From Psammoneis japonica (lineage: Eukaryota): DNA of 64,000 bases. The stretch covers positions 62,001 to 126,000 of the forward strand of contig QPGO01000023.1 in NCBI GenBank assembly GCA_008632985.1. Direction: 5' to 3'. Shown here in pieces: positions 1,210-55,964 of this stretch. Within the stretch, counting starts at the first letter, position 1, and every line of letters starts with the position of its first letter. Below the pieces are notes generated by a model, which was not told where the DNA came from, made no database searches, and was given only the letters and a program-made list of their open reading frames with translations. Made by a program: the position numbers and the translations under genes.

Positions 1210-3060
1210 AACCCCGTTTTCAATTTTCAACAAAAAGCACACATCGACACCCACTGATGTCTTGCGAATGCAAAGTTCCCGACAAATGTTGGGGTCACAA
1301 GCAGAGGGTCGCATCAGCCATGGAGCCATCACCAAAATTTGTCCTTTGTTGCATTTTCCCAAGCAATTTTTTGGTGCTCCAAGAAAAGCCGGCTCTCCAC
1401 CCTCAAATGCCCAACACCACCATGAACAATGTGTGTGCCTGGTCCATTCTTACAAGGCACTGGTTTAAAGTCTGGGAAACCAAAAACACTTGTGTCTTCA
1501 GCATTTCTGTCTCTGCTGGGGGGTCAAACTCTGGTGGGGTGCAATGAAGTCAAATGCGGCTGCTGGACCCTTTCCCAAAACTGAGACACTTCAACGCAAA
1601 ACCCGCTTCACAGCTGTGCTCTGTTTTGCAACTCATTGTTGACCTCATGACAACTGCATTTTGCCTCTTTCATGCCATGCTTTTGTGCTTTCAGCTTCTG
1701 CATTTTGCACCCATCTCTGCTTCCAATCTGGAGCAAATGTGCACAACTTCCACTGGCCAAAAAATGTTCTGTGGGGCAACAGCATCAAACAGCACACCAT
1801 TTTGTCAACGTTGCTTCTCTGCTCTTTTTTCACCACACACCAAGAAACTGTTGACAAACTTTGCTTCACTCTGTGTGTTTGTTCTCTCCACAGTTTGGCT
1901 CTCTCCAAGTCAAAAATGCCAAGACGGAGCAGCGCTGCAGTTGCTTCCTCAAAGTCACAAAATGTTCCTTGTTCCTTGGAGCCAAGGGGTCAACCAGCAC
2001 TTGAGAGCCACCCCCTGGTGCAAGTCCTTTGCTTGTGTGAGTTGATGGGCCAGAGCTCTTGTCTTGAGCCACTGCATTCTTGCAACATTGTGTGTGCACT
2101 CACACGCCAATGTGCCTCAAGAAGCTGCAAGTGACAAAGACTGCCACAATGACTGACATCAGCAACTTCTTGACCAACTGCAGATTGAACAACCAGCGCC
2201 ACTTGAGGCACAAGGTTCAAAACAAGAGTGGAGTCTAGCTCTTCTGTCTTGTTTTTTGTAATCAAAAACTTCTCATTCTTGTCAAGTCTTTGGCATGTGT
2301 TCATTTGTGTTGGCCCCAGTGCAAAGACAAGTCACTTTTTTTGTTGGTTGTTGAGTGGCCCAGCTTTGTTCTTAGAATTTGGAAATTGGCACAAATCTGA
2401 TCACTCCTGCTTTGCTGTCTGCTGCTTTTGCAAGTTCAGTCTCTTCACCCTGAAATGTCACATGCACAAACACTGCAATTTTCTCAACCACTGCCAAGAT
2501 GACCTCTTGCACTTGCATTTGCTCAAACCGCCACTGTTTTGAACATTTGTTGAGTGATCTCAGCACACTTCTTCCAACTTCAATGCAGTGGTGCCAAAAA
2601 CAAGGTGTGTTTTTGGTGGGTGCAAATTAGCACATTGTGACATGGCACTTTATGAATGACCGAATTGGCACATTTGTCAATGACTTGCCTCTCAAACAGA
2701 CTCCAGCAGTTGGTGTCAACATGTCAAATGCTTTCTTGCAAAAAAAAAAAACCATCATCAGCGTGAGGATTTGATCATCGGTGCATTCATCTGGAATGCA
2801 CCTGCTGTGCCAGTTTGGAGTTGTGTGCTTGAAGAAGCTGTGTGCCACAACAACAACAATGACAAAGATGTGGTGAGGTTTGCAGTCTTCCAAAAATGAG
2901 ATGACATGCTGCAAATTGTGCTCATGTGGCGCCACTCACCTCCTTGAAGACACACAGAAGCCAATGAGCCTCCCCACCTGCACTCATTGCCACCTTGTTG
3001 TTTTGTTGTAGAAGTGGTTTCTTGGTCAACAAAACCTGTGGGTGTCATGCATTTCTGGGC
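1210..3060. other. TpA-depleted, TG/CA-rich hypermutated tract A (degraded repeat or pseudogene of unknown origin)
   Basis: Manual count gives about 8 TpA in ~1.85 kb, none between ~1468 and ~2235. CpG is also scarce. Flanks have normal TpA. Confidence 0.85.
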
Positions 3061-3462
3061 AGCAGATTAATCCCAGTGATGGAGAACTGTACGAGAAAAG
3101 AGCTAAGTACAGCACAGTTGCACCCGAGATCACAAGCGTGCATTTGCGACATGCAGAACTAGGGTTTTCAGTGTGGAATTACATTTCGCTTCTTCCAGAG
3201 CTTTCCTTCTACTACCTTGCGCTATGACTTCTTCACGAGGGCGCTATTGTCTGTCTACCGGCGCAGAAACGTGTACAGAGGCAGCAGTTGTCATGAACCA
3301 ATCGCGAACACAAGCGGGAATTTCTAAGAAATCAACTCTAGAACTCGTAACACCCAAACGTCCAGAACAACCTCCGTGGTTGCAATTCTTTCGAATGGTT
3401 CTAATGCATTGATTTGGTCCGCACGTACATACTATGTAGCCCGTGCGCAGCTAAGAATTTTG

Positions 3463-5838: not shown

Positions 5839-6227
5839 TGTAGCAAACCGGTACAGTAGGGCTTCAGATTGTTGCTTATTGGTTAGGGTATTGTTGCTTT
5901 TGGTCCTCTTTCTACTCTCTACTCTAGAGAGCTAGAGGTAGACTTGCGATCCAAATGGATCGATCTGTAGCGCCGCTTCTCATATTTCTCCCTTATTCTC
6001 CCGGATCCGCGATCCGCGTTTCATACATGCTTTTTAGTGTATTTTTGCGATCGAGCCTTGAGCCTTGCGAGCGAGCGAATCATCCTCATCTTGAGAATCT
6101 TGTCTGCTGGTGGAATCCGGCTCGCCGATTCACAGGAACTCGCCTCTTTTGGGGCCTCACCCAGATTCGAATCGGAGACTGGCTCGAGATGTGGTGCCCT
6201 TTGTCGTCTGCCTCTGCTGCCTTTTTA

Positions 6228-7799
6228 CAGCACTGCTCTTTGTGCAAGAACTCTCTGCTCCTCTTCCTCCTGGCGCCAACAACAAGCGAGCTGCCGAGCT
6301 GCCGTGTCAGCTGCTGCCTCTCCCTGCCAACCTGACACCGCGCCAGTGTTGTGACATCTCCCAAGAAGGACAGGACTGTCCCCATGGAGATCAAACACCA
6401 CAAAGCCTTCAACTTGGCAGGCCAACAAGGTCAGCGGCTGTGATGGTGCCATGCTGTTGGGGCCAGCTCAAAGGCCCCATGCTTCCACCCCAGTGGAGAG
6501 GAGCTCACCTTGCTGGTGGCCAAGCTCACCACTGGTGGGGCAGAGCCACATGGTGGAAACTGATTTCCTTGTGTGCAGCAGCTGTGTTTTGAATCAAGAA
6601 GAACAAGGGTGGAGCTGTGACAGTGCATTTGCCCACCCCTGACTTGGGGATGTGGGGGGCCCGCGATGCCGGGCTGTGACAATGACGTTTTTTTGTTTTG
6701 TGCCACATGTTGCACATTTTGCATTGTTGCGCAGTGCAGTTGTCGGGCAATGATCCACTCAACACCTTTTTTGACATTTTTTTGCACAAAGCAGTTTTTG
6801 AATGTGTTTGCAGAATGGTGCACAGCACAGGCAGATTTTCAAAAATTTCAAGCGTGAAGAAGCACAGCTGCGCTGCAAACTTGGTCATTTGTTCAGATGC
6901 AGAAGAAGAACACACACTCATTCTTGCCCACCAGCATGCTGCTGTGGCACTTTTGCACACAGAACTCTGCACAGGCCCACTTTGCATGCAGTCCCGCCCA
7001 GGCCCAGAAAAACCATCTGATGTGAAATCCGATTGTTCCTCATGTGGAGCAAACATTTGTCACTGTGACACAGTGCCATTGCCATGTGGGTGATCATCTT
7101 GAGCAGGCCCGCATGTTTGGTGACTTGAGAAGAAATGCTGTGTGACACATCACCAAGATGCTGGTTTCTCAATTTGTTGATTTTTGCCCCACTTGCAACA
7201 AGATGCAGCCATCCATGTGGGCATCAGCTCAAGGGGTCAGCAAGGTCCCTTGCCACCCCCCACTCCTCCTCAGAAACTCAATCTCTGCTCACAGCATGTC
7301 TCCCTCAAGGTGCACCCTGCTCCAACTCTGGCACCAGCTCCCATGAACCCCACCAGGTGCTGCCTCTGCAGAGTTTCTGTGCACTCTCTCCTCCTCTTTC
7401 ATGCCTTGGTGCTCAGCCTGCGGATCTGCAATGACTTCTTCCAGCAAAGCAAGCCTGGCTTCCATGGAGATGGGTCTGGTGCTGCCAGGGTCTGCAGGTG
7501 ATGCTTCCTCCTCCCTTGTTGTTTCTTCCTCTTCCTTCTGAAATGCGCGCCTCTTGTTCTTGATGAGGATCTTCGTGCGCCCCCTTGCCCATCTTCATTG
7601 CTTGGCCAGAAGGGAGCCTGCCAACACACCTCTCTCATTGGCAGGTTCTGAAATGCAACCCTTCAATGCACAGGATGAGCTGCAAGCTGCCACAGACGCT
7701 TGGCTGTTCCACACAGAGGGCCCGGCCATCAACCGGGAAAAGTGCGATGGCGGGGCCCAGAGAGTGGGCGCAACGAAAATGCTGTTGTTGGCTTGTTCG
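6228..7799. other. Hypermutated tract B, with no TpA over ~1.57 kb
   Basis: Line-by-line scan found no TA dinucleotide between the TA at ~6226 and the one at 7800. Confidence 0.9.
7030..7205 (+). pseudogene. Remnant of an integrase-type H2C2 zinc-binding domain
   Basis: Translates IVPHVEQTFVTVTQCHCHVGDHLEQARMFGDLRRNAV*HITKMLVSQFVDFCPTCNK, i.e. H..H...IT...V..FV..CPTC, with an internal TGA. Confidence 0.5.
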
Positions 7800-8139
7800 T
7801 AGCGCTGCACTGGCTCTTGGGCAAAGATTGCCCAGACTCGCTTCTCAAAAGTGTGGTGGTTGCCTTCATTCCTACCTGTAGGGTTGCCATCTTGTAGCGG
7901 CCACTGCCTTCCAGGCAGCGGTGAGGCACAAAAAATCTTGTAACGCACGACATCGATCGACAGTCAAAGACAATCCGTCCGCCGTCCGCAGAGTGAGAGC
8001 CGAGAGCCGATGCGGGATACGGTATGTGACAAAGAATTAAAAATAAAGAATAAATTGATGGGGTATCATAATCATACTGTAGTTACTCTCTTGAGCAGGA
8101 AAAGGCTTCTTCTTTCGACAAGTAAGCAACGCCACTCCC

Positions 8140-22960: not shown

Positions 22961-23691
22961 CTGTAGCTACTAGAAGTATGTTTTTTTTCTTCTTACAGTT
23001 TCTGCGGACGAAGTGGAAACGTTCCATGCATCAAACATACCATTGAGAAACCCATAGAAAGGAGCCATCACGCTGACAGCTTTCAACAAACACTGGACAC
23101 GACGATGATATCCACGGAGCTTACCATTGCCTATCTTCAAAGTTGGATTTTATGGTAGCCCTGCGGTCCCGCCAAAAAAATGGAAATCGTGATTGCCGTC
23201 GCGTTTTCTGCAGTGAGGGTTCGCATCGTGATATATGGTTGATGCCTGATTGATAATTTATGGGGGCCTGTGCTGCCGTCAATTCGCGATCAAAATTTGC
23301 CATAGCGAGAACCGAACGGTAACGCTTGTTTTCTTCGAAATTTCCCCGTTGACGATGCTCCATTGACTTATGATCAATCTGTTGCCGTGTCGACAGAACT
23401 ATTTCGTAAGGTCGTCGTAACTTGAACCTTCAACTGTATAGAAATCAGGCGGACAAACCAGAAGAGATTTTCTTGAAGAGCTGATTGCTTTTTGACATTG
23501 CCGGTTCTACACCATGCTCCACATCGTCTCCATTACATCGGGTGTATCGGTAACGATCCTCGTTTGGCGGGTAAATCGTGTCGTTGCCGTCATCACTGTG
23601 AAACATGAGCGATATTTCTGAACGAAGCCAGAGTCGTGTGAAGGATTGCACTCTACCCCATGCATGAGAAACCAGTGAGCGCAATGCTGTT

Positions 23692-34201: not shown

Positions 34202-34228
34202 GCCTAAGTAATTTCGAAAGCTAATGAT

Positions 34229-39402: not shown

Positions 39403-39780
39403 TGCACTGTGCTTGAAGAACGAGTGCAAACAAAAGTAGAATGAAGTTCAAAAAGTGAAAATTGTGAGAATTGTTTCTGCACAATCATTTTGGATTTCTC
39501 CGAATGGGTTCTCATTGGCCCAAACCTTTTGCACTGCTCCCACAGACAAAGGCCTTTCGGAGAAATCAATCATGACAACAGATTGTCCGGATGAAATTGA
39601 TGTTGACACGCAAGATGTCAACATCATTGTACAGTCACATTTGCGATTCTCGACATCCGATCAACTCTGTGTGATTGATCTGTCCTTCATGCGAACCCAC
39701 GATTGACACACGATTGGAGTGTAAATTTGTTTGACATGTGGACGTGCATGTGCACAACGCACACAACAATGCACATTGCA
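39403..39780 (-). repeat. 3' LTR
   Basis: Aligns with 44600..44978; adjacent to the PPT. Confidence 0.92.
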
Positions 39781-39806
39781 TTCGCCTCCCCAATTGCACA
39801 TTAGAG

Positions 39807-42800
39807 TCAGTCGTCAAACGGCATTGTCCGACGAACATTGACAGCGTCAATGACGTCACCGCGTTTGATCTGTGCTGTGCCATTGGCGTGTGCCGTTGTC
39901 ATCACATGCGGTCCAATGTGGGGCTGTTCCAGTTTCTGTGAGTCCTTTTCGAGCAGCATTTTCTCTCCTGCTCTGCACGCACAAGGAGTGCGTCGAGTGT
40001 TCTCTCGAGCATTGTTTTTGTTTGTGATTTCTTGTTTTTGCTGCCGGATTGATTTCCAGTCTGCGACATGTTGGACGTTAAATGTCATGTCCCTGTTGAA
40101 AACCAATTGCCCAGGTGCAGCTTGTGTGGCAGTGTGACACATGGAATGCACAGCAAAAGCCGCTGCTGACAATGTTCCAGTGAAGGGATCCTCAGTGTCC
40201 AGAGGTGTGTGTTGCAAATCAAGCGTGCGGATCACATTTCCGAGTGCTTGATGTGCGCATTCAACAATTGCATTTGCTTGTGGATTTCGTGTGGTTGCAG
40301 GCTTGACTTCAATGCCACAATCCTCTTGCACCATGTCTTTAAATTGGTGTCCGATGAACTCACTTCCACGGTCACATGCAATTGACGATGGCCAAGGATG
40401 TCTGCCCAACCATGTTCGTTCTAATGATCCGGCTGCAGTTGTGGATTCCTTGTTTGGGATTTCCACAACTTCAAAACCATCCGGTTGCCGGATCAATCAT
40501 TGTCAAACATTTCAGGACTGGGGGTTCTTTCTCTCCCTTGCAACGCATCTTGCACGGCCCAATGAGATCCACACACAGTCATTCCCATGGCGCTGATTCT
40601 GCGCACTTGGGAGGTAAATGTCCACATTTCTTGTGTTTCTTTTTGAATTTCTGGCATGTCTCACATCTCAACACGCATTTTTGCATGTCTTCACGCAAGG
40701 TGGACCACCACAGGTGTTGTGAGATTGTCTCTTCTGTTCGACCCATGCCAGGGTGAAGAAGGTGCGCATGACACCAATCTGTCACTGCTTTTTGCAACGT
40801 CTTGGGGACAACGATTTTTTCCTTGTGACATGTGAGCAACCGGTCTCGCTCGCCTCCATGAAAAGTCTTCGTGTGAAATGTCTCATTTGACAATTTGGAG
40901 AGAATGTCTTCACCCCGCTTTTGTTCACAATCAAGAACTTTACAATTTAATGGAAAGACATTGTCACAGGATTTTGGTGGGACCTTCTCAGCTGACTCTT
41001 CTGTGCTGAGGGTTTCCACAGGTTCTTTTTTTTTTCATGGTGAGTCGGCTGATCGCATCTGCAACAACATTTGCCTTGCCCTCAAGGTGTGTCATTTCAG
41101 GACTGCACTCTTCCATTGTCAGATGCCAATGCATGACTCTGTTTGTTGTGAAAATTTCATGTGTGAGATTTTTGTGATCCATGCGTGTGTTTGTCTGTTG
41201 GCCAAACAGCACATTTCGGAACTCCTTTAACGTCTCCACTGTGGACAACAGCTCTTTTTCTGTTGCAGCACAATGTGTCTGCACTCCATTCAGCTCGCGG
41301 CTGTAGAAGGCAATTGGTCAGTTCTTCTGTGTAACAACCGCCCCCAGTTGAGAATTGCTTGCATCAGCGTGCATCTCAAAGGGTGTGTTGAAATTCAGAC
41401 ATGACAATGATGTGTCTTTGGAAATTTTGCGCTTCACATTTTCGAAGGCTTTTTGTTCTGTTTTGGTCCATTGCCACCTTGCTTGTGTTGAAGTGAGTTT
41501 GGCAAAGGAGCTAAAACATGAGATTGTCGAGGCCACATGTCTCGACAGCAGTTGATCACACCGACAAAGCGACGCAATTCCTTGCGAGTTTCAGGAGTTG
41601 CGATTGCGTGAATCGCTTCTGCCTTTTTTGGAATTGGACTGATGCCATTGCGAGTGATGTGGAAGCCCAGATAGTCTGCTTCGGGTTTAGCGAAAAAAGA
41701 CTTTTCGGCATTGACCTTCAATCCGGCTTGTTCTGGGCGTAAAAACACCGTCTCAAGCTTCTTGAGGTGGTCTTGAAAATCACCTTTTGCAAGGCACAAC
41801 ACATCATCAATGCAAGTTCTGATGAACTCCAGACCTGCCATGAGCTCATTCATGTGCTCTTGGAAAATGTCTGGAGCTCCACAGATTCCCACAGGGAGTC
41901 TACAGCACTCATGCTTGCCCCAAGGCATGACAATTGTGCACAAACGACGTGCACGCGGCGTTGGCTCGACATGGTGGCATCCCACATTTAAATCTGGGGA
42001 CGTTGCACACATGAAACCTTCAAGTTTCTGTGGCACATCCTGAACACTGGGCAGAGGAAACGGAGTGTGTGTCAACCTCTTGTTTGGCTCACGAAAGTCA
42101 GGTGGAAATCAAACTCGACCATTTTTCTTGGGTTGAACAAAGGTTGGAGCGGCCCATTCAGAGCAATTTGTTTTTCTTAAGACCTTTAACTTGCACAGTC
42201 TTTCAACCTCTTTACAAGCAGTCACCTCCAAGGCTTGTGGTGCGGGAAATGGTTTGGCATGATGCGGACTCATGCCCAATTTCAACTTCAAATCCACCGG
42301 CTTCCGGTCCATTTGCCTGGAGAACCATCAAAAAGGTTTTCAAATCTTTTTAAAAGGAAGTTCAGCTGCTTCTGCTCTTCAGGAGTTAGATGAGCAGCTG
42401 CTGCTGTCACATCATTGAGGTTTGCGGCGTGACAGCCTGAATCAAGGATCCGATTGACCCTGTCATTAAGACTGATCACTGCATGAGATTCCTCAATGTG
42501 ATCGGCAATCAACTTAAAAACATCGGCATCGAAGAGTGCACCAACATTCTTCATGGGAGCAGTTGCATCTTCCCATTTGATCTCTTCACTCGAGAAGTCT
42601 GACATTGTCCCAAGACTCGACATTGAGTCATGTCCCATGATCATGTCACAACGACTCGAAGAAGAAGAGGAGTTGTCAACATGTGCCGTTGTTTCGATCA
42701 TCTTGTGTTTGTCAAATTTGGGCAAGGAGAGTTGGATTTTACATTGACTGTCAGTCGTAAAGAGCCCTCCTTTGGTTTCCCAGAGTTTGGTGGCGGACAC

Positions 42801-43010
42801 CTTGGTTCTGAGTTTTCACGTGAATTTGCGCAAAATTGTGGTTGACGATGTTCCGCTGTCGAGGAGAACACGCAGAGGCTCATTTTTCGCTTTGCCCAGG
42901 GAGGCATTCATGTGAGCAACGACAACTGGACTAGTGTGAGTCATCTTGGCCCTTTTTCCGGGCTTCCCAATGTCCAGCAGTGCGCAAGACTCTCTTGCGG
43001 TGCAAGTCAT
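39807..43010 (-). pseudogene. pol: pol (protease, RT, RNase H, integrase), broken by frameshifts and stops
   Basis: VLLDSGTS (PR); SEWAAPTF, FPLP and RTCIDD (RT); DASNSQLGAV and TEKELL (RH); HPGMGRT, CETCQK, DRGSEF and NPQANAIVE (IN). Confidence 0.92.
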
Positions 43011-44163
43011 TCCTCAGAATCGCTGCGCGTCAATTTTTCAAACTGACAATTCTCCTCGTCAAGGGTGTCAGAGTCACAATCTTTGCTCTTGCACTTTTTG
43101 TTGTTGTTCGAAGAACTCGCCTTGAGTGATTTTTGAACTGCTTGGACTGCCGTGGCATTCAACTCTTCTTTGCGAGTGGCGTTGTCGTTATCGCGACGAG
43201 ACCACGTGCGATTGCCATTTGAACGGCACCGTTTTGGGTCGGGTTCACAGTTCCCACGGCGTTCTTTTGCAAGTCTTTTAATCGACCAGCACTTGTCCGC
43301 ATTGTGAGTGGATTTTTCGCACAGAATGCACCACTTGTCGGACTGAGATTTTTCGGTGCCATGTTGGTGACCATTTTTGGAACCACGTTGGGAACCACTC
43401 TTGGCTTTCGATCCAGCACTGCTGCTGGGATCAGCCTTGGCATGAATGCCGTCAAATGCATCCTCAGCGACCTCTGGGCGCTCCAAAAACTCCACCAACT
43501 CGTCACAGGTGTGTTTCAAAATTTCGAAACCCTGGACGGTCGACTGGCGCTGCCACTTTCGAGGTGCAAGATTGAAGAGGATGTCCTTGAGCTCGTCCTC
43601 CTCGATCTTCTGATCCTTTCCAAAGGGAGGACAGAACTTGAGGTCTTCGTTGACTTCCTGGACCCAAGCAGCAATCTCGCATGCTTTCATTGACTCGGGC
43701 TTCTTGAGATCGCGACGTAGATGACGTTTCTGAACCGAAAGTGCGTTCTCAGGAAACACGTGTTTCGTGAGGTGCTGCAGGCATTTCTCGAAGCTTCCTT
43801 CTGTAGATTCGTCTTCAACATTCGCCGCTGCATTCTCAAAAGCACGTAGAGCTTCTCCTTGTGGCAACACATGCATGAGACGGAACTCATCGGCTTGCTT
43901 GCTGATGTTCTGGCCCACCAGAAGTTGACCGTAGCTCTTTAAAAATTCGATGTGCTTGGGAACGCCCTGTTTCTTGCAGTGCTTGACGTTGATCGTGTGG
44001 GTCCAACCATCCTTCTTCTCAGGATGAAAACACTGCTCCATCTTGAGACACTGGCTTGGTTTGAGGCTCTTTGGCTCGGAATTCGATTCCAACGGTTGAG
44101 GGACGATTCTTTCCTGCCTTGACGAAGTCTTGGCCTTGGTTGCCTGAGGTGTGAAAGCTTCAT
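43007..44163 (-). pseudogene. gag: gag of the Gypsy element
   Basis: VFPENALSVQKRHLRR..KKP, DELKDIL...P.KWQ and a CILCEKSTHNADKC zinc knuckle. The upstream part of ORF 43007..44407 merely runs through the inserted TIR element. Confidence 0.85.
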
Positions 44164-44182
44164 CTTGAACTGGTTGCCTTCT

Positions 44183-44578
44183 GACGGGTTCCAGCCCCAG
44201 GTGGGACTTTTTGTGACGTTGGGCCCGCAGAATTCTGCGTGCGAGCTCCGCAGTAAAATTGTTGAGCAATGGATGCATGAATGATCGCCAACAGAAAAAG
44301 AGGCAATTTTGCGAACGCATCTCCTCTTCCACACTTGAAGTGCATTCTTTACAGCATGCCCGGGTGTGTTCTTTAGACATTAAAGAATGTGCCCAGTGCA
44401 TTTTCATTGACTTGAGTGCAGATGACAGAAAGCCTTTGGCTTCGCAAAACAGGGAGTGTGGAACAATTTTTTATAATGGAACACGTGGAAATGTGCGTGC
44501 GAAACATGCGACGGATGACAAAAAATGATTGTGTCACAGTTCAACAGTGCGAGGTCCCACCTAGAGCTGGAACACGTC
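44183..44578 (+). mobile_element. 396-bp non-autonomous TIR element, copy C, nested in the Gypsy 5' leader
   Basis: TIRs GACGGGTTCCAGCCCCAGGTGGGAC / GTCCCACCTAGAGCTGGAACACGTC; 4-bp TSD TTCT (44179-82, 44579-82). Confidence 0.88.
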
Positions 44579-44599
44579 TTCTGTGGTGTGCATGCACAA

Positions 44600-44978
44600 T
44601 GCACTGTGCTCAAAGAACGAGTGCAAACGAAAGCAGAGCAAAGTTCAAAAAGTGAAAATTGTGAGAATTGTTTCTGTGCAATCATTTTGGATTTCTCCGA
44701 ACGGGTTCTCAATGGCCCAAACCTTTTGCACTGCTCCTGCAGACAAAAGGCCTTTCGGAGAAATCGATCGTGACAACAGATTGTCCGGATGCGATTGACG
44801 TTGACACGTGAGATGTCAACATCATTGCACAGTCGCATTTGCGATTCTCGACATCCGATCAACTCTGTGTGATTGATCTGTCCTTCGCACGAACCCACGA
44901 TTGACACACGACTGGAGCACAGATTTGTTCAATGTGCAGATGTGCACACATGTGACGCACATGACAACGCATGTTGCA
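44600..44978 (-). repeat. 5' LTR
   Basis: Aligns with 39403..39780. Confidence 0.92.
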
Positions 44979-45662
44979 GCTGGCCCTCATGTGGCTCCTC
45001 CTGCTCAAACAACTGCTTCACTAAAAAGTGCGTTGGTTGGCACCGGGTCACTGCCGCATTGGACATTTGCAAGCATTCAGTGCACATGCAAGAAGCGAGT
45101 TTGCTGGCAATCGTGGTGCATCTCCATCGGAACCACGGACCACTTTGACAGGCAATCGTCATTTCGCCTCGAACCGACTTCCAAAGACACACGCAATCAA
45201 ACGCACAGAGGAAAACCGTCAAGGACCCAAGCCTTCAGGTCCACATGGCAATTGTGTGCGGACGACATTCAATGGCTCAACTCCAGCAGATCTAATTCTC
45301 AACGAGAACGAGACGATCGACTCACCTGTGGCAGAGTTGTGATGCAACCATGGCAACAAAGACAACGATGTGTTTCAAACGGTCGAATGGTGATTTGTGT
45401 GCTTCGTCAACAATGAGCAAAGTGATTCGGATTTCACGTGTCCCGGTCTGCCGTTTCAAAATTTTTGAAAATGTGGCGGGAAACCAACGGTGTTTTTCAC
45501 TATCGCATTTTGCGTGCTTGTACGAACACCGATGACGTCGGCCAAATTCGTCAGAGTACGAGCTCCGAACTCTAAGATTTCCCTCCCTCCACCATCACAC
45601 CTCGCCACAAAATAAAACGCGATACAGTAGATCAAAGGCAATCACTTTATTTCTTCTCCATC

Positions 45663-46773
45663 ATGGTATCACGGCAGCGCAGCAAGTTGAATGTGCGTGA
45701 CAGCAGCAGCATGTTGCCATTAAAGTGTATCGTTCTCAGTGTGCTGTCCCTTGTGCATGTTAGCACTGGCTTTCTGCTTTCATCGCGAAGCACCCTCCGG
45801 ACGGGAATGCCAGAATGCTCATCCTTAACACATTGCATGACATTGAGCAAAAACAAAAAGAACACGGCGGGAGAGCAGAACTTGAATTCAAAGATTCGGT
45901 TAGAGAATGGACGCCAGAAGACAGTTCGTGCTCGTACGGTGCAACTGGCGCCAAACGGTGAATGGAATGTGACAGTATTTGAATGGGAGGAAATGGCTGA
46001 CACTGTGACAGCCTTTTGGAACGTACAGAATGCCAATGCGCTGACACCTGCACCTCAAAGCAATCATAACGATTTGCTTGATCCGTTTGGATTGGTATCA
46101 TGGCCCGGGTCTGTTGTTGCCGCTCAGGAACTTGCGCGCTACAAAGATACCATTAAGAATTCCACTGTCTTGGTCGTTGGTGCCGGGCCAGGGGTGGAAG
46201 CTCAGGCGGTGGCAATGTTGGGTGCAAAGCAAGTTATTGCTACTGACATTCATCCCACGACATTGAAATTGCTAGAGCTTGGTGCAGAAGCTGCTGGACT
46301 AGACCATATCATTACTACACAAGGTATGATTATTCGATTTGGTCTCGCTGGATAGAGGGAGCCTATATGAAAGAAGTATGCCGCATCTAACCATATCAAT
46401 TCTCTTACTATTATGCCTCTTTCTCGAACAAGTCTTTGACTTGCTCTCAGACGAATCGTTGCCACAATGTGACATTATGGTTGTTGCTGATGTCATGTAC
46501 AATGAGCATTTGGCGCAAGCGGGTGTAGGTCGTCGAATAAAAGAGGCATTGAAGCAGACAAACTCGCCGAGGATATTGGTTTCGGACTCGCAACGCTTTC
46601 ATGGCACAGATTTTTTACCAGTGCTCAATCATATATTTGACGACAAACTCGCATGGAAAGAACGAAAGCTAAAGGGATTTACTGGATCGGGCGTCATGAT
46701 TGACGAGGATCAAACATATGATGTAACTGTAAGGACGTGTGCTATTGGGTGGGAGAGTGCTGAAGAACAATGA
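45663..46773 (+). CDS. SAM-dependent methyltransferase, family-16-like protein methyltransferase, with N-terminal targeting peptide
   Basis: DPFGLVSWPGSVVAAQEL, VLVVGAGPG, ATD and VADVMY motifs; intron about 46324..46431. Confidence 0.85.
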
Positions 46774-46844: not shown

Positions 46845-49843
46845 TTAGTTGTCATGGTCGGCCGTGTTTTCTTTTAACAAACGAATGAGTTCTGACTTCA
46901 TGACATCCAAGTTGGCAGCGAGAGGAATACACGCCATAAAATCCTGCTCACCGCCATATACTGCAAAGCCTAGACTAGCAAGTAAGGCGAGGCTTCCTTC
47001 GATACGAGCGATACGATCAAAAACCTTGTTGCTCAATTTGAACGTACGAAACTTTGACGTCCAAGGTTCACGAATGGCATTTTCGAGATACTTTTGAGCA
47101 GTGGAAAGTATCGTTTGCAACGCCTCCTTTCCGCTTTGGTTCAACTCAATGACGCGTCTTGCACAAGAATCGACAGACTCGACGGTCGGGGTTATCCTGT
47201 CTTCTTTGAACAAAGTTGTTGTACCAACCAGGGACCCTTTATCGAGGCCGGTTGAACTAGATCCATCTTGTTGCTCTTGGGAGTACATTTGAATGGCTTT
47301 CGCGGCCGCCGCGTTTGGTTCACTTCCGTACACAACAAGTTGCTCGAAGATTTCCTTGATGCGAGCCGCCGGATCTTTTGGTTTAGGCGTTTCGTTAGGT
47401 GAACGAACCAGGTACGGGTTTTCTACTTTTTCTCCAGACTTTGTTTCCTCCACGTCATCTGTACAGGACAACTCTAGCATCTGCATAATTTCCTGACTTT
47501 CTGCTGGGATTCGAGCAAACCAATTGTCCTTTAAGAGGGATTCAATAGTGACGTCCCCACCATGGCATGCTCGAGTCACATCACTACGCGCTTCTGCGCT
47601 GGGAACAACAACCTGCCCCGAAATTGCATCCAACACAACCAAGGAGGGAATTCCTCGAACTCCATACCGCGCCGAGATGTGCTGTTGTAGCATTCGTCCA
47701 TCCTGATACGGTACAGCTAGCCAAGGCATAGTTCCAAAATAGTGCTGAAAACCCGAAGCATCTCTGTCGGAACTCACAAACACAACCTCCAGCCCATGTA
47801 CCGAAGCAACCTCTTCCTTGAGATGGGTGTACATTTCAGCGAGCAAGGGCGTAAATTGCTTGCAAGGCGGGCACCAATGCTCTGAAAAATAGATCGCCAC
47901 CAATCGGTTGTTGTGGAGAGCGCTTGCCGTATCCAACAAGGTTGTTTTCGCGTTGCCCGGAGTATTCACCAATAGACTTGGCCCGAAAAGGTCAGAGAAG
48001 AAATCGGAATCGACGGGAACATCAAACTTGGGTTCATCTGGGTTCTCTGCCTTGTGCTGGATATCATGCTGATGGTCAGCATCGTTTTCGAGGAGAGCAT
48101 TCGGCAAGAAATGAAGTGTTTGCCACTCGGAAACTTCGATACATTCAAACGGGTACGCCTCTTTATCGAAAAGATAGACTGGCGAATTTGGCTTTGTCAC
48201 AAAACCGGTATAACGGCCTTTATTCGCCCGGGTAAAGGACAAGAATGACTCTTGCTTTTGTACGAGACTAGCGGTCAGTTGCTGTTGAAGGGACATTGCC
48301 TTGTCGGGCAGGCGGCACGTGACACGTCTCGGTCTCGAGTGCTTTTCGAGTTTCAAGCTACACGTGTCGCTTTTCTTTGGAGGACCAGATAGAACCAGAT
48401 CGATACCATTGCTTTCGTTACTTGCTGTACACATTGCCCAATCGGGATGTCGGTCCACCATTCCCACAAACATGATTGAAGCATTGGCAGCACTACTGGT
48501 CGCGTTGGCATCCAATGAAAACCCGCCGAGACGTTTCTGCATTGTCGCAACATCGACCTTGTCCTTTTTACTATTTCCAACAAGAACCACGATACGGTCA
48601 TTTGGAAGAGTATCCACAAACGCAGCCAAATCGGACCAAGCGTCAAAGGATCTAGATTGTAAGATACACCCGAGATTGGCTTCATCCAGCACAACAATAG
48701 ATATCGAGTCTGGTTGTCCGACCGCACAACCGACATTTTCCACATGAATGCTTCCGTGGTGTTTCATTGGCTTGGCACAAACCTGTATTGAGATTTTGTC
48801 AGTCTCGCGTTGCTGCGGAAAGAAGTTTTCGACATGAAAACCAGTCGCAGTATCTGGTTGCTCTTGAGATGATTCAGTTTCATCATTGTCGTCTCCGAGT
48901 TCAAGCCGCGCAGCTCTCCACGAGAGCGACCCACTAGTCCTACCCTCCTTGTATCCCTTGATCCACTTTTTGTAAGTCTTGTACTGCTCAAGAACTTGGT
49001 CCTCCGCCTTGCTACGTCGATCCAATTCCTCCAATCGTGCCTTAGACAAACCGATACGTAGGGTAGAGTTGAATTGCTTGATAATGTCCCGGCTCACTGC
49101 TTCACTCGAACGCATCTTTCGACGCCTAGCTTGAAAATCCTCTGTATTAAACTGCCGTGTGTAGCGAGGTGTAACATCGGCAACCTGATCGATCGACACC
49201 CCACGTTAAAACTCAACTTCTTTCCCCAACCCGCTTCATACATGCTGGGCTCTCCAATAACTCCTTCACAGGAATCCGCCATGATCCATTTGCCACGTAT
49301 GTAAACTTCAGTCCATACGTGATCTGTGACATCGAGAATGTATCGGGTCTCAAAGCCCAAAGCTCGACAGTACAAACCAAACAAATTGGCATACTCTCCA
49401 CAACGACCTTTGTGAGTCTCGAGCAGCTTTCGTGGTGAATTGAATCGAGGAAACGTCGTTGTTTCGTCGTCATTACAGGACGAACACTTGTATACTTCTA
49501 CCCGTGATGCATTTCCTTCACGTTCCTCCTCCGTCTCGGCATTACGGACTCGTTCACAACTTGTTTCTGTGCCGCCGCACTTGGTACACGGTGGAGCATC
49601 AACCCACGTCATTTTGTTCTTGAAAAAGAGTGCCAAGCGTTTCAATAAAAGCACGTCGCCCTCGTAGTACACATCATCGTCACGACAATACTCATCATTA
49701 TCGTCGCTCATGATTTGATCCAGAGGAATAAAGGCACGGCATTCTGCCAGCAAGAGCGGATCGGCGTCCCATGCTTGAACCGTCTCGATTGCGCTTTGAA
49801 TACGACGCTGAAACTTGCGGTCCTTGTCGTTGTCAACAGCCAT
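46845..49843 (-). CDS. Peptide:N-glycanase (transglutaminase-like core) with nucleoredoxin-like thioredoxin and C-terminal PUB domains
   Basis: CTKC/CSSC Zn sites, GRCGEYANLF, DVTDHVWTEV and DSCEG; YFSEHWCPPCKQFTP; KYLENAIREPWTSKFRTFKLSNKVF...LGF. One frameshift near 49205. Confidence 0.88.
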
Positions 49844-51419
49844 TCTTGTGTCAGCTTGTGTGTGTGTTGCCTAAGCTACTGTGAGAGCTGATACAAAATG
49901 ACAGTATTATATTTCGGTAAGAGAGAAAGGAGTTGCAACAACAACCACAAAAAAATATCATGAAAGATCGCAACACAGAAAATGCTGAAATGACTACGTT
50001 CTACTATGCGTGTGCTGTGTGCGTGCGGCTTGTGCGGTGTGTGCGGCCCGTGATGAGAGACGACACATCGCCTTATTGAGCCAATGCCTGAAGATGCACA
50101 ACATTTTACACAATGGAAAGCAACTTCAAAAGATGAGCTTTTGTCCGTTGTCCTCAGAGACACAGGACAACGTGGCATGATCTCTGACCCAAAAGTCATG
50201 CCCTTCACCCATGCAGGTTTGCTGACAAAGCAAGGAAAGTTCTCATGTTTTGGCGTCAAGACAGAGCTGCAACCACCGGCGCTTTCATCCTGCCAGAGCT
50301 GACAGCACAATGGTGAGGAGAGCATGGAGAATCCGGCAAATCTTCCTTTTGGCTTGATCTCATCAAAATGCCTCAGCAACACTGTGGCAAATGACTTTCC
50401 AACTGAAGCTGCATTTCAGCCCCCTCCTGCTCAACAACAAAGCAAGACTGCTCTCTCCTTTGCTGCTTGCCACATGGCCACAGCATCATTCCAGAACAAA
50501 GCACATTTGTTGGTGGCCCAGACAGCAAACCCACAAACAGAGATCTTGATTTCTGTGGGAGTGGCAGCAAGCTGTGGTGTCTGGAGCTGCTTTTGTGTGG
50601 AGACACATGTCATGGCTGATTTTGATGTGAGCACAACGGCTGCAAGCACCAAGAAGAAAGAGTTGCACCATGAAAGACCATCTGGCTGTCAACTGCCATG
50701 GACCAAAAAAAGTTGCAGGTGCAAGAATTAAAATCTGTGAGCTGTGCTGGCCACATTGTGGGAGGCTGCAAAACTGCAAAATGTGCTTGTGCCAAATTTG
50801 CTGAAAGACCAATGTTCCAGAGCTGAGGCTGCAATGTCCAGCAGCCACCTCTCTTTGAGACATTTCAGCCAATCCAATCTCAAATGAAATTTGACATGAC
50901 TCCACTGGCACATGGAGGCAGGAAGAAGCTTGTTGGGTGTGGATTCAAGTGAGAGCAGAGTGCGCGTCCAATTTGCAAAAGGCGCAGACATCTTTGGGCG
51001 TTTTTGTTTTGAGCACAGCATGTGTTCTGAGGGAGCTTGTTTTGCTGTTTCTGCTTGTGATCAGGTTGCTTGTCTGTCCCACCCTCTCATTCATGGTGTT
51101 CTACCTGCATGTGCTTTTGGTGTGTGGGCAGATGCATTGGCGCACATCTCCTGTTTCTGTTGTCTCCTTCTTGCATTTCTGGCTCCTTTGTCCTTTTCAG
51201 TTTTCAGCCATTTGTGCATGGCACACAAAGTCTGAGCTGCAGTGCATTGAAGAGCTTGCCACACATCATTGAAGACATCCAAAAATGCCTGGATGACCTG
51301 GCTCATTGCAGTTTGACTTGCTTTGAAATTTGGTTGCGTGTGCCCAGTGACCCACTGCAGTGCTCATCATTTCATCACCATTGTGGGGACAGCCATGTCT
51401 CATGATCAACACCAGCTCT

Positions 51420-51880
51420 TGAGAAGGCCACAGTGTTGTGTGGAATGTGAGCAAGGACAGAAGATGGAGCTGTGTTTTTAATCTGCTCTTGGCTTGCTTG
51501 GAGGAGGGAAAGCATTGCAGGGTCCCTGCTGAATGGCTCTGGAGAATGGTTTGACTGGCAACGAAGTGACGAAAAAGCTTGACATGCTTGATGCTGTCAG
51601 AGAAGAATGACTTGAGCAGGTTGGAGTTGTGTGGGATGTGTTGGAAAATCAGAGCCTGCTTGTGCTCCTGCAGACACTTCTCAGTGAGCACAACTCGAAG
51701 AGGCTGGAGTTCTTTTGAACAACTCAAGGAGCACAGTGGACATTGCACAGTGCCCAGCAAACACGCCAAGGACCAAAAAACCCAGGAATTGGCTGGACAA
51801 TCAATGGCAAGCTGGTGGGTCTGGGGATCATGCAAAGGTGGTTGCATGGATTGAATGCTGGGTCTCAACGTTGTTTGCCC
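51420..51880 (+). pseudogene. Helicase-associated (HA) repeat domain pseudogene
   Basis: VWNVSKDRRWSCVFNLL...HCRVP, LDAVREE*LEQVGVVWDV and FEQLKEHSGHCTVPSKHAKD match HA repeats, with Y->C/H and CGA->TGA changes. Confidence 0.7.
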
Positions 51881-52688
51881 AAAAAGCAGTCTCCACCACT
51901 GCCAGTTGGTGTTGACAGTCTTCTGCGATGACACTCTTGGTGTCATCTTGTCAATGTCAATGAAAGAATGAACCACATGACACATGGCATTGAATGTTTC
52001 TCCAGCCATTGTTTGGCTTTTTGACTCCACCAATCACCAGCTCATGACCATGTTTTTATGACACGTTGGCTCCATTTCCTCTTGCACCATCTGGCCTGAG
52101 ACATCAAGCTTGGTCAACTCAACTTTCAATGGCTGGCATCTTTTTAATGGTGCATGCAGTGACTGCCAGGTGTTGGCAATGTCTTTGTTGCAAGCAGTCT
52201 CCACTGTGAGACAGTGGCTGTTGAGTGTCTGTTGTGGTGGCACAAGAGTGAAATGTTGCACAGCTTGCTGCTGTTTGCCATTTGCCACTTGCTTCGAATT
52301 TAAGTTGAAGCACCAATGTCTGCATTGCACAGTGTGCTCCTCTTGAGAACAACAGCTGGCTGCAGTGTCTGACAAGAATGGAGAGAACAGAGACCATGGG
52401 AAGCTCCACAGCTTCCCAGCCAAACAAGATCTGGAGTGGCTGGCAAAAAGAGAGCAGCTCTGTTTGCTCCTTGCCTTGTTCCAAGCTCATTTCCAAGAGC
52501 ACACTGTGACAATGCTTTCTCACACTGCTGCTGCAAAGAAGCCAAAACAACAATGACAACAACAACAACAACTGCACAAGTGTGCCAAGAGGCAAGAAAC
52601 ACCCCCAAGACGACCCACCTGAATGCCCCACATTGGGGCACATTCTGGCAGCCAAAGCAAGGCTCACAAACCCACAGAAAAAGGAGAG

Positions 52689-53738
52689 GTGGAACAGCAG
52701 AGCAGCACAATGACCAGATTGTGTGCATGTGCACAACCTGCACAGCAAAATGTGCGAAATTTCCCAATGTTGAAAAAGTGCTTCCTGCTCTGCCACATGT
52801 GTGAGGAGTGTGTGGCGCTTCATGCACATCATGGTCTGCTTTGCTGTGGTTGACAAGCCCTTCCTGCATGCCGGCCAACATTGCTCAAAAGACACCCTCA
52901 TGAATGTTGTGAAGCACACAGCACTTTGCTGTCATCCCAACCTTTTTCTTGAAGAAAGGGTCCCCACTGTCTCACTCACTTTGCTGGCTGTTTTCAGAAG
53001 AGACAAGCTCGAAACTTCTGACAAAGCACACAAACTTTGACATTGTTGGAAAAGATCAGCTGCTCACAAGCCAGCACCAGATGACAACACAGAGCTTTGT
53101 CATTGTCATGCCGTGCTCTGGTGGCTGCTGCTGGCCCTCTCTCTGAAAGAAAAGTCTTTTTGTCAGCCTGCTTTAATCTGGAGCTCGGACCTCAACCACG
53201 AAGACGTGGAACAGCAGAGCAGCACAATGACCAGATTGTGTGCATGTGCACAACCTGCACAGCAAAATGTGTGAAATTTCCCAATGTTGAAAAAGTGCTT
53301 CCTGCTCTGCCACATGTGAGGAGTGTGTGGCACTTCATCATGCACATCATGGTCTGCTTTGCTGTGGTTGACAAGCCCTTCCTGCACGCCGGCCAACATT
53401 GCTCAAAAGACACCCTCATGAATGTTGTGAAGCACACAGCACTTGGCTGTTGTCCCAACCTTTTTCTTGAAGAAAGAGACCCCACTGTGCCACCCTCACT
53501 TTGCTGGCTGTTTTCAGAAGAGACAAGCTCAAAACTTCCAACAAAGCACACAAACTTTGACATTGTTGGAAAAGATCAGCTGCTCACAAGCCAGCACCAG
53601 ATGACAACACAGAGCTTTGTCATTGTCATGCCATGCTCTGGTTGTTGCTGCCAGCCCTCTCCACTGAAAGAGCAAGGCCAAAAAGTCTTTTTGTCAGCCT
53701 GCTTTAATCTGGAGCTTGGACCTCGACCACGAAGACGT
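52689..53738. repeat. Two tandem ~517-bp copies; the 3' part recurs at 54584..54725
   Basis: GTGGAACAGCAGAGCAGCACAATG at 52689 and 53206; ACAACACAGAGCTTTGTCATTG...GAAGACGT again from 54584. Confidence 0.9.
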
Positions 53739-55964
53739 CCCTGTCAGACTGTCGGCAGTTTCTTTCATTTCTGCGGTTGCCGTAAAGCGCACACAGGAAT
53801 CAGCAACAATTTTGAAAGTGCCAAGTTTCCACAATTCTTCTACATGCAAAATCATGGTGGCAATTCCACAGAGATGCACAAAAATGACAGTTGGACAAGC
53901 ACACCATTGTCCCACAATGAAAACACCACACAAGGCAATCTGCACATGTGCTCCTTCTTTGACACATGCACCCTCAGCAAATTCCTGAGCTTCTTGCAAC
54001 TTCCATGCAAAAAATTGCACCTTTTTGCAAAGAACAGGGCCAGCAGGTTGCCAGTTCATGGGTCAGCTCCCCATGATGTCAGCAAGAAATCCCGCTGGGA
54101 AATGTCAACAACCACCAAGTCAGATCATCCTGGAGACTGTCAGCAACAAAAAAGGATGACCACATGTGGCGATCTACATGGAGCCAGTGGAGGCTGTGAA
54201 CAATGATGAATTAAAGCCAATGCAAGGCCAGCTTCATTGTTTCAAGAGAAAGCCATGTGTGGTTGAGGACCATGGCACAGCGCCTCTCTCACATGAAAGA
54301 AAAGAGCGCCGCTTCTTTGGCATCAAAGACTTTTGACATCATTCCATCTTGACAATGATGGCTCTTTCTATGACAAGCAAACTTCCCAAACCAAGAAGCA
54401 CAAACCCTCACTGCTCTGTTCAATTCTGCCCACATGACAACTTGTTGAATGGACACATTGTTTTTGCACCCATGACCAACCATGGCAAAGGAGCTGCTCA
54501 ACTGCGCAGCTGCTGTGGCTCCAGAGATTGCAAGCTGTGTGTCACACCCATCACCTGGAGAACTAAAGCTCCTAACTTCAGTCACAACACAGAGCTTTGT
54601 CATTGTCATGCCGTGCTCTGGTGGCTGCTGCTGGCCCTCTCTGCTGCACTGAGAGAGCATGGCAGAAAAGTCCTTTTTGTCAGCCTGCTTTAATCTGGAG
54701 CTCGGACCTCGACCACGAAGACGTCACTGTCGGCAGTTTCTTTTCTACGGTTACCGTAAAGTGTACGTAGGAATTGGTACAATTTTGAAAGTACTGAGTT
54801 CCTACGAATCTTCTACATACGAAATCATGGTAGTAATTCTACAAAGATGCACACAAAATGATAGTGATTGAGAAATTTAGCAACGGTCACGAAACAAACA
54901 AATCTCTGTCTCGGAAATTCTTTCGTTTCGATCACAACTCGTTGTCTCGCACGATGTGTTGTTGTTCGCCAAGCAACGATTGCCGCGATCGCCCAGGATG
55001 GCTCGCCCTTCTTGCGGATAATAGAGAGCTAGCTCTTGTTTGGTGTTCCACAACTCATCATGCTTGTTGACGTGTTGTCTCCAGGTGGCGTAGGTGTTGC
55101 CAGTTAAGTCCAGAGGTCGGGGCAAATCGAATGCGTCTCTCCGGCCTTGAGTCCATGTCACTCTCGTGTCTTTGAGCGTAGGAAGTTGCCTGTTCGCTTG
55201 GCCCGTCAGGTCACGGCTGTTGAAACAGACAGCAGCGTTCGTCTGTGAAGCAGCAAAAGCTCGCCGAGCAGATCATACCGTTGACGGAACACAGGTTTGG
55301 GGTTCTGTCGTATCAGTGACATGATACGGTAAGTCTTCACTCGTAGGGAGTGTTGATTTAGAACGCGGTCGACTCGCAAGTTTTCTTGTTGTCTCCGTAG
55401 TACGTCCCCCCTTTTACTTTTTTTAGTGACATTTTTCACTCTGAAGATACGTAAAAGCTTGAGCGCCATCTTTTGACGGCGCTCTTGAGGCAACGTTACC
55501 CTACGCAACCGATTTCAATAGCAACTTTTGACTCTTTGAAGCTTTTCCAATAGAAATAGAAAATATAAAGTGCAATATAGCAATCTTTACTTTTGTGCAA
55601 ATTATTCCGTGCATACGTCAATGGAATGCGATGACGTTCGTAGCGCTTGCGATGTCATTGCATGCTTTCTTGCCTGGGGCCCACGCTGGGGTATTCGTTA
55701 CGGGATGCCGCAAGGCTTGTCGTCGACATGTGCTAGACTGTTTCGGCGCTGATCGCCTGCTGCATATTTTTTATCGATTCGTGGTATTCACGCAACAGAA
55801 GAATGCCGAATGCAAAGCCAAGGGGGGTTTATTCCGGCCCTCTCAATTCTAAAGTAGCTAGCTACAATACGCTCTATTCATAGCTAGAGAGAACGAAAGA
55901 TTCGCGTTTCGTGAGTTTATTTGTCTGGCGGTACCAACCTCCGTTTATCCTCTTTATCACCTGG

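Follow-up and report, generated by a model that had tools for sequence, protein, structure and literature searches.

Evidence for Local, Post-Integration TpA-to-TpG/CpA Hypermutation of Transposon Islands in the Diatom Psammoneis japonica

A stretch of 64,000 nucleotides from the diatom Psammoneis japonica (GenBank assembly GCA_008632985.1, contig QPGO01000023.1, positions 62,001 to 126,000; called the window below and numbered from its first letter) contains five tracts in which the dinucleotide 5'-TA-3' (TpA) has almost vanished in favor of TpG and CpA. We find that these tracts carry a retrotransposon, other repeats and a dead gene copy, that the TpA sites were lost after integration and on both strands, and that the loss depends on the base following the TA. 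We read the tracts as old islands in which foreign or redundant DNA lies silenced and on which a local TpA→TpG/CpA process, probably driven by a deaminase, acted after integration, and we put the probability of this reading at roughly 78%. A first-pass annotation, made from the letters of the window, had proposed a new, repeat-targeted genome-defence system of this kind, a reversal of fungal repeat-induced point mutation (RIP). This idea proved largely right, but the system is neither new in kind nor, as far as the evidence goes, triggered by repeats.

Results

The tracts were defined by sliding 500-bp windows of dinucleotide ratios and by a list of TA-free gaps. They sum to 21,036 bp, compared to a remainder of 42,964 bp, and are listed together with the other features in Table 1. 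Pooled, the tracts hold only 97 TpA (observed/expected ratio, O/E, of 0.07), while the remainder holds 1750 (O/E 0.60); at the outside rate about 857 would be expected in the tracts. TpA is close to absent from each of the five, with O/E values of 0.02-0.10. TpG is raised to an O/E of 1.68 (1.18 outside) and CpA to 1.66 (1.20 outside). The dinucleotides ApA and TpT are not depleted, ApA standing at 1.27 in the tracts versus 1.15 outside. CpG is reduced as well, to 0.45 in the pooled tracts versus 0.96 outside; this decay is strong in tracts 1, 2, 3 and 5 (0.17-0.35) and mild in tract 4 (0.70). Because TA→TG/CA and CG→TG/CA cancel each other, the G+C content is nearly equal inside (49.1%) and outside (47.8%).

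The longest run without any TA extends over 1574 bp (6226-7800, tract 2), and as about 4.1% of the positions outside the tracts start a TpA, the chance of such a run is near e^-64. The edges of the tracts are sharp, with the change taking place within about 100 bp; only to the left of tract 4 is the transition gradual (35036-35667). Between the tracts lie genes that carry Pfam domains and have a TpA O/E of 0.5-0.9. Window ratios and gap list together confirm the five sharply bounded, TG/CA-rich tracts of about 21 kb that the first-pass annotation had described, and also the normal TpA content that it had ascribed to the intact genes in between.

Table 1. Tracts, repeats and gene remnants in the window (LTR, long terminal repeat; ORF, open reading frame)
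Feature	Position	Strand	Remarks
Tract 1	1205-3009	.	TpA 8 in 1805 bp, O/E 0.06; CpG 0.21, TG 1.91, CA 1.75
Tract 2	6040-7800	.	between two divergent genes; TpA 2 in 1761 bp, O/E 0.02
Tract 3	26445-29622	.	TpA 8 in 3178 bp, O/E 0.04; CpG 0.26
Tract 4	35668-45501	.	TpA 65 in 9834 bp, O/E 0.10; CpG 0.70
Tract 5	50107-54564	.	TpA 14 in 4458 bp, O/E 0.05; CpG 0.17, TG 1.94, CA 1.73
Ty3/gypsy LTR retrotransposon	39403-44978	-	TG..CA ends, 4-bp target duplication GCTG, broken ORFs
3' LTR	39403-39780	-	aligns to 44600-44978
Integrase_H2C2	40579-41034	-	Pfam
RVT_1, reverse-transcriptase ORF fragment	41434-42108	-	Pfam
5' LTR	44600-44978	-	aligns to 39403-39780
Dead GCV_T-type (aminomethyltransferase-like) gene copy	36518-38507	-	GCV_T and GCV_T_C over two frames; frameshift, stops
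Gypsy-leader-related fragment	26838-27248		in tract 3; 72% match to 44183-44578, opposite strand
Repeat module copy, unmutated	29741-30143	+	just outside tract 3; TpA and CpG density normal; outgroup
Tandem duplication in tract 5	52685-53207 / 53202-53738		copies 95.8% identical
High-copy repeat unit, unmutated	54584-54865	+	just outside tract 5; outgroup for 53604-53891

Where the content of the tracts can be recognized, it is transposon or dead gene copy, just as had been claimed: the gypsy element, repeat fragments and the GCV_T-type copy all lie inside them. Tracts 1 and 2 and most of tracts 3 and 5 contain nothing that Pfam recognizes. The search of 69 ORFs outside tract 4 returned zero families at the curated cut-off, and weak matches on ORFs there (E 0.011-0.045) were taken as chance.

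At the moment of integration an element carries two identical LTRs, and any difference seen between them later was acquired in place. In the gypsy element we counted 42 mismatches in 374 aligned columns, and 36 of these 42 are TG/CA/TA/CG alternatives at one and the same dinucleotide, namely 12 TG↔CA doubles (24 positions), nine CG↔TG/CA and three TA↔CA exchanges. Only four other transitions and two transversions remain. In a two-lineage model of the LTR pair, about 27 ancestral TpA sites have been lost to 94% per LTR and about 23 ancestral CpG sites to 27%, and CpG decay explains no more than 0.8 of the 12 TG↔CA doubles. TpA was lost at least 8.9 times faster than CpG, a rough lower bound given that the TpA loss is saturated. 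Differences outside pyrimidine-purine steps amount to only six positions, which places TpA change about two orders of magnitude above background. The comparison of the LTRs rules out both an RNA-editing event before integration and an inherited TA-poor composition.

The direction of the change can be read from unmutated copies of the same repeats. The high-copy unit next to tract 5 holds 15 TpA sites. Its counterpart inside the tract (53604-53891) keeps three of them, shows exactly TG or CA at ten and has lost two with an additional change; counted by bases these are five A→G, six T→C and one other. Elsewhere in the same alignment changes hit 3 of the 58 A and 5 of the 64 T outside TpA, and 5 of 11 CpG. 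For the module copy next to tract 3, the noisy full-length alignments (70-75% identity) were replaced by a version restricted to well-aligned columns. In this three-way alignment 11 TpA sites could be followed, of which 9 are TG or CA in the tract 3 copy and 8 in the second mutated copy at 44.2-44.6 kb, while existing TG and CA dinucleotides of the outgroup are kept in the mutated copies (7/8, 8/10, 7/8 and 10/10). Finally, the comparison of 36869-38641 with contigs of related copies lists 15 differences, where five are TG/CA in the window versus TA, five are TG/CA versus CG and five are of another kind.

T:A→C:G transitions occurring specifically at TpA, as the first-pass annotation had claimed, are thus borne out by the polarized alignments, by the divergence of the LTRs and by the tyrosine replacements described below. 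The check by family alignment that it had suggested, whether T>C and A>G are commoner at TpA than in other contexts, gives a yes for the polarized repeat copies of this window. Error-prone synthesis of the pol-eta type at WA (W: A or T), which it had listed as a possible mechanism, is unlikely, with ApA undepleted and only 3 of 58 A outside TpA changed. Foreign DNA of an intrinsically TA-poor composition was considered as well and is ruled out by the LTR and outgroup comparisons.

The proteins tell the same story. Tyrosine is encoded by TAY codons only. At ten columns of the reverse-transcriptase (RT) fragment that are Tyr in at least 70% of 120 homologues, the window encodes six Cys, two His, one Phe and one Tyr. 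Other conserved residues are kept, with 7/7 Phe, 8/8 Asp, 9/9 Gly and 10/10 Pro; Leu is replaced by Pro five times, as predicted by CTA→CCA. In the dead GCV_T-type copy, the five Tyr of its nearest homologue P0001 read C, C, V, H and C (codons TGC and CAT), and 17 of 20 Phe are retained.

We then asked which of the TpA sites had survived. The residual sites are non-random: TTAA makes up 27 of the 97 TpA in the tracts versus 67 of the 1750 outside (Fisher p = 3e-15). Measured against the frequency outside the tracts, survival is 0.82 for TTAA (27 observed, 32.8 expected) and falls to 0.23 for CTAA/TTAG and 0.19 for GTAA/TTAC. It is lower still for CTAG (0.11), CTAC/GTAG (0.10), ATAA/TTAT (0.055) and ATAG/CTAT (0.043), and lowest for GTAC (0.013; one of 77 expected), ATAC/GTAT (0.008) and ATAT (0; 58 expected). 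A half-site model, in which the A of each strand is hit according to its 3' neighbor and the two strands are independent, fits all 16 contexts with survival values of 0.875 for TAA, 0.35 for TAG, 0.20 for TAC and 0.067 for TAT (likelihood-ratio chi2 120, 3 degrees of freedom). The polarized sites concur, TTAA being retained, TTAC going to TTGC and GTAA to GCAA. This makes the target 5'-TA(T>C~G>>A), i.e. 5'-TAB-3' (B: C, G or T); TTAA escapes almost entirely, and no ATAT is left.

The two possible outcomes are balanced, with 2222 TG and 2169 CA in the tracts, and they are randomly interspersed in all five (runs-test z from -1.3 to +0.8). No heterogeneity of the TG/CA outcome was seen between 250-bp bins. 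Strand-coordinated editing, in which a processive activity works along a single strand, is rejected by the runs and heterogeneity tests, and there is no bias by transcription strand. Both strands are hit independently, and each TpA is hit separately.

The loss of TpA and the decay of CpG share the same islands but can be told apart. The TA-free zone overshoots the CpG-poor core by 100-335 bp at the left of tract 1 and on both sides of tracts 2 and 3; in tract 2, for example, the CpG-poor core covers only about 6342-7696. The stretch 35.0-36.3 kb is CpG-dense though TA-poor. The reverse is seen among related gypsy loci from metagenomes: none of the 79 loci is TA-poor (minimum TpA O/E 0.58, median 0.745), and in L010, L037 and L003 a CpG O/E of 0.12-0.26 goes along with a normal TpA content. 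The hosts of these three loci methylate their DNA and decay CpG without the TpA process. From CpG-poor relatives with normal TpA on the one hand and the TA-poor but CpG-dense stretch on the other, we conclude that the loss of TpA and the decay of CpG are separate processes that act on the same islands.

Three public runs were found, all from one sample that is probably the source of the assembly; two of them, X1 and X2, are used here. Contigs built from exact 31-letter words of X1, with a depth of 55-70, reproduce the TA-free sequence: one contig of depth 68.7 covers 49800-52541 with 2 differences in 2742 bp, another covers 35224-36864 with 5 differences in 1641 bp, and 54237-54613 is recovered with 0 differences. 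Such contigs require accurate reads, and modified bases miscalled in long reads are therefore an unlikely source of the signature. The base-calling artefact, which the first-pass annotation had named among the findings that would refute its idea, is in this respect made improbable by the X1 contigs, on the strength of reads from the same sample only. Two of the five differences at 35224-36864, at 35642 and 35668, concern residual TpA of the window that the X1 contig reads as TG and CA. They may reflect heterozygosity at the edge of the tract, or else give a weak hint that the process is still running or is polymorphic.

The genes are covered by X2, and its depth drops to zero within 39670-44338 and 50342-54343; such a gap in coverage is no evidence of silencing. 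Its contigs skip 109 bases with GT..AG ends at 46318-46428, in a methyltransferase-like gene (ORF 45576-46355 onward). This is a spliced intron, which suggests that X2, labelled 'DNA?', is complementary DNA (cDNA).

The gypsy family of tract 4 is abundant, with summed contig depths of 5,000-48,000 compared to about 70 for single-copy sequence. An X2 contig, about 90% alike, runs straight from 39402 to 44999 and represents a related copy without the gypsy insertion, and other contigs match the dead GCV_T-type copy at about 85%. From these two observations it follows that tract 4 is a diverged segmental duplicate that later took up the gypsy insertion. It is the youngest of the islands. The dead gene copy itself is 54-63% identical to P0001. 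Together with P0001 and P0002 it belongs to a divergent aminomethyltransferase-like subfamily, which has LCSKGKEL where LCLYGxD is usual and a long C-terminal extension with repeated DP(A/S)TGE(E/V)FE motifs.

These data do not support the proposed targeting of repeats. Unmutated copies adjoin tracts 3 and 5, the depth of tract 5 is that of a single copy when likeness of at least 85% is counted, and the contigs related to the dead gene have TA and CG at sites that read TG/CA in the window. The targeting looks dependent on chromatin state or on age, or episodic, and seems to act on older silenced insertions with some slight spread into the flanks; it does not look like homology sensing in the manner of RIP. 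Diatom transposons are reported to carry H3K9me2/3 and H3K27me3 (PMC4504042).

Finally, we looked for the protein footprint of the process elsewhere. Among the 120 RT homologues none is poor in tyrosine, the minimum being 2.85% Tyr. Four of 150 RT-related cluster representatives, however, contain no tyrosine at all (P0265, P0367, P0374 and P0392; 175-699 aa, from unrelated ENA and NCBI contigs). At the conserved Tyr columns they carry Cys or His in 11/14, 7/9, 8/10 and 15/21 cases. These proteins indicate, at the protein level, that the TpA-erasing signature is present in other public assemblies.

Discussion

The sequence of events that we favor begins with the islands being laid down: a gypsy retrotransposon, other repeat fragments and a duplicated gene copy settled in the nuclear genome of the diatom. 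A local process acting on the DNA then turned nearly every 5'-TA-3' into TG or CA, an A:T→G:C change that may fall on either strand. For the chemistry, our leading guess is a deaminase of the TadA/ADAT2 type that turns adenine into hypoxanthine, a base with the pairing behavior of G. The natural target of this family, A34, always follows U33. Such an enzyme would presumably be recruited to silenced chromatin, and its role would be the irreversible inactivation of mobile DNA. The element is killed by missense, with all TAY codons for Tyr becoming Cys or His codons and many Ile, Leu, Met and Val codons being altered, and without any stop codon being made. TA-rich promoters and polyadenylation signals would probably be destroyed along the way.

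Several points weigh against this picture. In the context model, TpA contexts of neighboring genes serve as a proxy for the ancestral composition of the tracts, and the check on the product side agrees in direction only, with an excess of 227 for TTGN (allowed) and of 120 for TCAN (disfavored), counts that are confounded by CpG decay. The polarized alignments are short, with 15 and 11 TpA sites. The reads share the sample of the assembly and come from libraries of unrecorded type. Both the silent chromatin state and the role in defence are deduced indirectly. Regarding the enzyme, the preference for T and the aversion to A on the 3' side fits no deaminase known to us: it is unlike the anticodons served by ADAT2/3, in which position 35 is G, C or A, and it is also unlike the 3'-G preference of ADAR. 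Pfam finds no deaminase domain in the ORFs of the window. Lastly, the palindromic TpA cannot tell a damaged A from a damaged T.

It is this last point that gives rise to the first alternative. The polarized alignments, the LTR comparison and the context data fit T→C at 5'-VTA-3' (V: A, C or G) as well as A→G at 5'-TAB-3', and the damaged base could be thymine. A TET/JBP-type oxidase would make 5-hydroxymethyl- or 5-formyluracil at VTA in silent chromatin, and a mispair of 5-formyluracil with G would lead to T→C. An enzyme sensing which base lies 5' of the T would account for the immunity of TTA in a simple way. 5-Formyluracil is mutagenic toward T→C, and the 5-hydroxymethyluracil of dinoflagellates favors TpA. 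We know, however, of no thymine-modifying enzyme and no modified base of this type in diatom heterochromatin, and the only 2-oxoglutarate (2OG)-Fe(II) oxygenase in the window matches just the general family PF03171. Overall we hold thymine oxidation to be unlikely.

In a second scenario a TDG/MBD4-type glycosylase would work on methylated DNA, remove the correct T from T:G errors at TpA and in this way fix a C. The tracts are CpG-decayed too, as would be expected under heavy CpG methylation; TDG has its second-best context at a mismatched T with an A after it; and the direction, T→C at TpA, is that of the very short patch (VSP) repair of bacteria. The rate of such a biased repair would be capped by the error rate of the polymerase, yet the loss of TpA is near-complete and at least 8.9 times faster than the decay of methyl-CpG. 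In addition, the TA-free zone is wider than the CpG-poor core, the 35.0-36.3 kb stretch is TA-poor yet CpG-dense, and related elements with strong CpG decay retain normal TpA. Biased repair is for these reasons very improbable.

A sequencing or assembly artefact would require that N6-methyladenine at TpA and 5-methylcytosine at CpG in heterochromatin be miscalled as G and T in long reads. Nanopore miscalls of exactly these two kinds, which would mimic both depletions, are known, and the only runs that we found come from the assembly's own sample and are of unrecorded library type. The same signature has nevertheless been observed de novo in Illumina data of Bigelowiella natans (bioRxiv 10.64898/2026.01.13.699255). 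Within the window, the X1 contigs at a depth of 55-70 reproduce TA-free sequence over kilobases. The stronger argument lies in the sequence itself: a miscalled motif would be read identically at every occurrence, yet the LTRs differ by TG versus CA at 12 sites. Unmodified-looking copies of the same repeats adjoin the tracts, and the relatives of the RT without tyrosine stem from other assemblies. We see very little room for such an artefact.

We give hardly any credence to ADAR-like hyperediting, in which A-to-I changes in retroelement transcripts would be fixed by reverse transcription; ADARs are, to our knowledge, a metazoan family. These enzymes prefer a 5' U and hyperedit double-stranded RNA derived from repeats (bioRxiv 10.64898/2026.01.13.699255), but the 12 TG↔CA differences of the LTRs contradict such an origin, the strands are hit equally, and a gene copy that is no retroelement, flanks and unrecognizable DNA are affected as well.

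Returning to TpA hypermutation by a DNA deaminase, the first-pass annotation had known of no description of such a phenomenon. One does exist: Mettrop et al. (bioRxiv 10.64898/2026.01.13.699255) report that integrated DNA of nucleocytoplasmic large DNA viruses (NCLDV) and of virophages in B. natans is hypermutated at TpA. According to the main text of this preprint, nearly all changes are A:T→G:C and occur only at TpA, giving TpG or CpA depending on the strand. The same TpA→TpG/CpA changes were seen de novo in mutation-accumulation lines sequenced by Illumina, at a rate about 1000-fold above background and in some lines only. Clusters of windows poor in TpA and rich in CpA and TpG are enriched in RT and DDE domains. 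The authors propose an ADAT2-like deaminase and name a candidate (bioRxiv 10.64898/2026.01.13.699255).

As far as the preprint's main text goes, both cases share A:T→G:C changes only at TpA, on either strand and in foreign or mobile DNA only, with normal genes as neighbors. They differ in host, a rhizarian there and a diatom here, and in target, integrated viruses there and transposon islands with a dead gene copy here. The viral targets in B. natans are still TpA-rich (rho 0.45, with the virophage region even TpA-rich), whereas the tracts of the window are saturated at an O/E of 0.02-0.10. In B. natans the rate was measured de novo, while here only a fossil record is available. The words 'trinucleotide', 'TTAA', 'context' and 'diatom' are absent from the main text of the preprint, whose supplements may hold context data (bioRxiv 10.64898/2026.01.13.699255). 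New here, compared to this main text, is that TAA is immune, that the LTRs prove an action after integration and that the two strands are hit independently, and also how the loss of TpA relates to the decay of CpG. In the literature searched, which covered few subscription journals, we found no report of TpA hypermutation in diatoms, and the B. natans preprint is the sole description of the process.

Other known systems resemble the tracts only in part. The APOBEC and ADAR footprints in vertebrate retroelements (e.g. PMC4866542) are likewise deaminase-type signatures fossilized in LTR retrotransposons as a by-product of defence. They arise, however, before integration in cDNA or RNA and on one strand, as G→A or C→T for APOBEC, or as A→G without a strict TpA rule. 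In contrast, the process described here hits both strands of DNA that is already integrated, and its targets include sequence other than retroelements. Fungal RIP, too, inactivates transposons and duplicated genes by dense, dinucleotide-specific transitions and leaves sharp, skewed islands. Its changes are C:G→T:A, mostly CpA→TpA, and create TpA and stop codons; here the direction is the opposite and no stops are made. RIP is also set off by duplication and hits both copies before meiosis, while in the window unmutated copies adjoin mutated ones, and copies related to the dead gene carry TA. Deamination of methyl-CpG, which is active in the tracts as well, gives the same products, TpG and CpA, but cannot remove TpA. 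VSP repair of enterobacteria, finally, has a T→C bias at a TA-containing word, which depletes CTAG and enriches CCAG and CTGG. It is mild, genome-wide, restricted to one tetranucleotide and driven by repair; here the loss is local and near-complete, and CTAG is not preferred (survival 0.11, compared to 0 for ATAT).

One may speculate that diatoms and chlorarachniophytes share an ancient defence, perhaps common to the stramenopiles, alveolates and Rhizaria (SAR) or reaching wider, in which a chromatin-directed adenine editor of double-stranded DNA acts at 5'-TAB-3' and of which the RTs without tyrosine would be footprints elsewhere. We regard this as a tentative idea that is rather doubtful at present. 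If true, the shared system would be a natural editor of adenine in double-stranded DNA with three-base specificity, erasing Tyr codons and TA-containing signals without making breaks or stops.

Independently of this, the tracts add to the known hosts of the phenomenon a second lineage, one that is ecologically dominant, and to its known targets ordinary transposons and a gene duplicate that has died. They show its end state, with TpA nearly erased and proteins devoid of tyrosine. Any candidate enzyme has to act on integrated DNA, treat the strands independently and prefer TAT > TAC ~ TAG >> TAA with TTAA being immune. It must moreover outpace the decay of methyl-CpG, and its domains have edges that reach slightly beyond the CpG-decayed core. 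Should it be a deaminase of duplex DNA, it would be of interest for base-editing technology. For genome annotation, the tracts are a source of error: they read as long pseudo-ORFs because only TGA stops remain, so that they mimic long ORFs, and they hide transposons from homology searches.

Neighboring genes and further repeats

The genes between the tracts were assigned by Pfam to a cytidylyltransferase, an ankyrin protein, a TLC nucleotide transporter, a 2OG-Fe(II) oxygenase, a thioredoxin/PUB/transglutaminase protein, eIF5B and a glutaredoxin. The 2OG-Fe(II) oxygenase lies at 23692-25044 and is the sole one in the window. The GTPase region of eIF5B matches many proteins at 87-91% identity; among the 120 matches listed, all names with a eukaryotic species are those of diatoms (Conticribra, Cylindrotheca, Attheya, Nitzschia, Thalassiosira and Stephanodiscus) and no match goes above 91%, as befits a diatom host that is absent from the protein collection and is not Bigelowiella. 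The TLC transporter resembled only bacterial protein clusters and was of no taxonomic use.

The high-copy character of the unit next to tract 5 shows in the summed contig depth of the bin 54344-55000, which is 1592. A module of about 400 bp (44183-44590, 26838-27248 and 29741-30143) adjoins the 5' LTR of the gypsy element. Its contig depth is near 45,000, about 6-9 times that of the gypsy interior, and it is found alone elsewhere too. The module may be a short repeat in its own right, present in very many copies, or a part of non-autonomous elements.

Outside the hypermutated tracts, an open frame of 1200 aa without Pfam match occupies 19364-22966 on the minus strand and contains tandem repeats of about 225 bp (19814-21217) that are 75-88% alike. 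Its TpA O/E is 0.3-0.5, CpA is high, and TpG and CpG are normal. The low TpA content of this frame is a strand-asymmetric coding bias.

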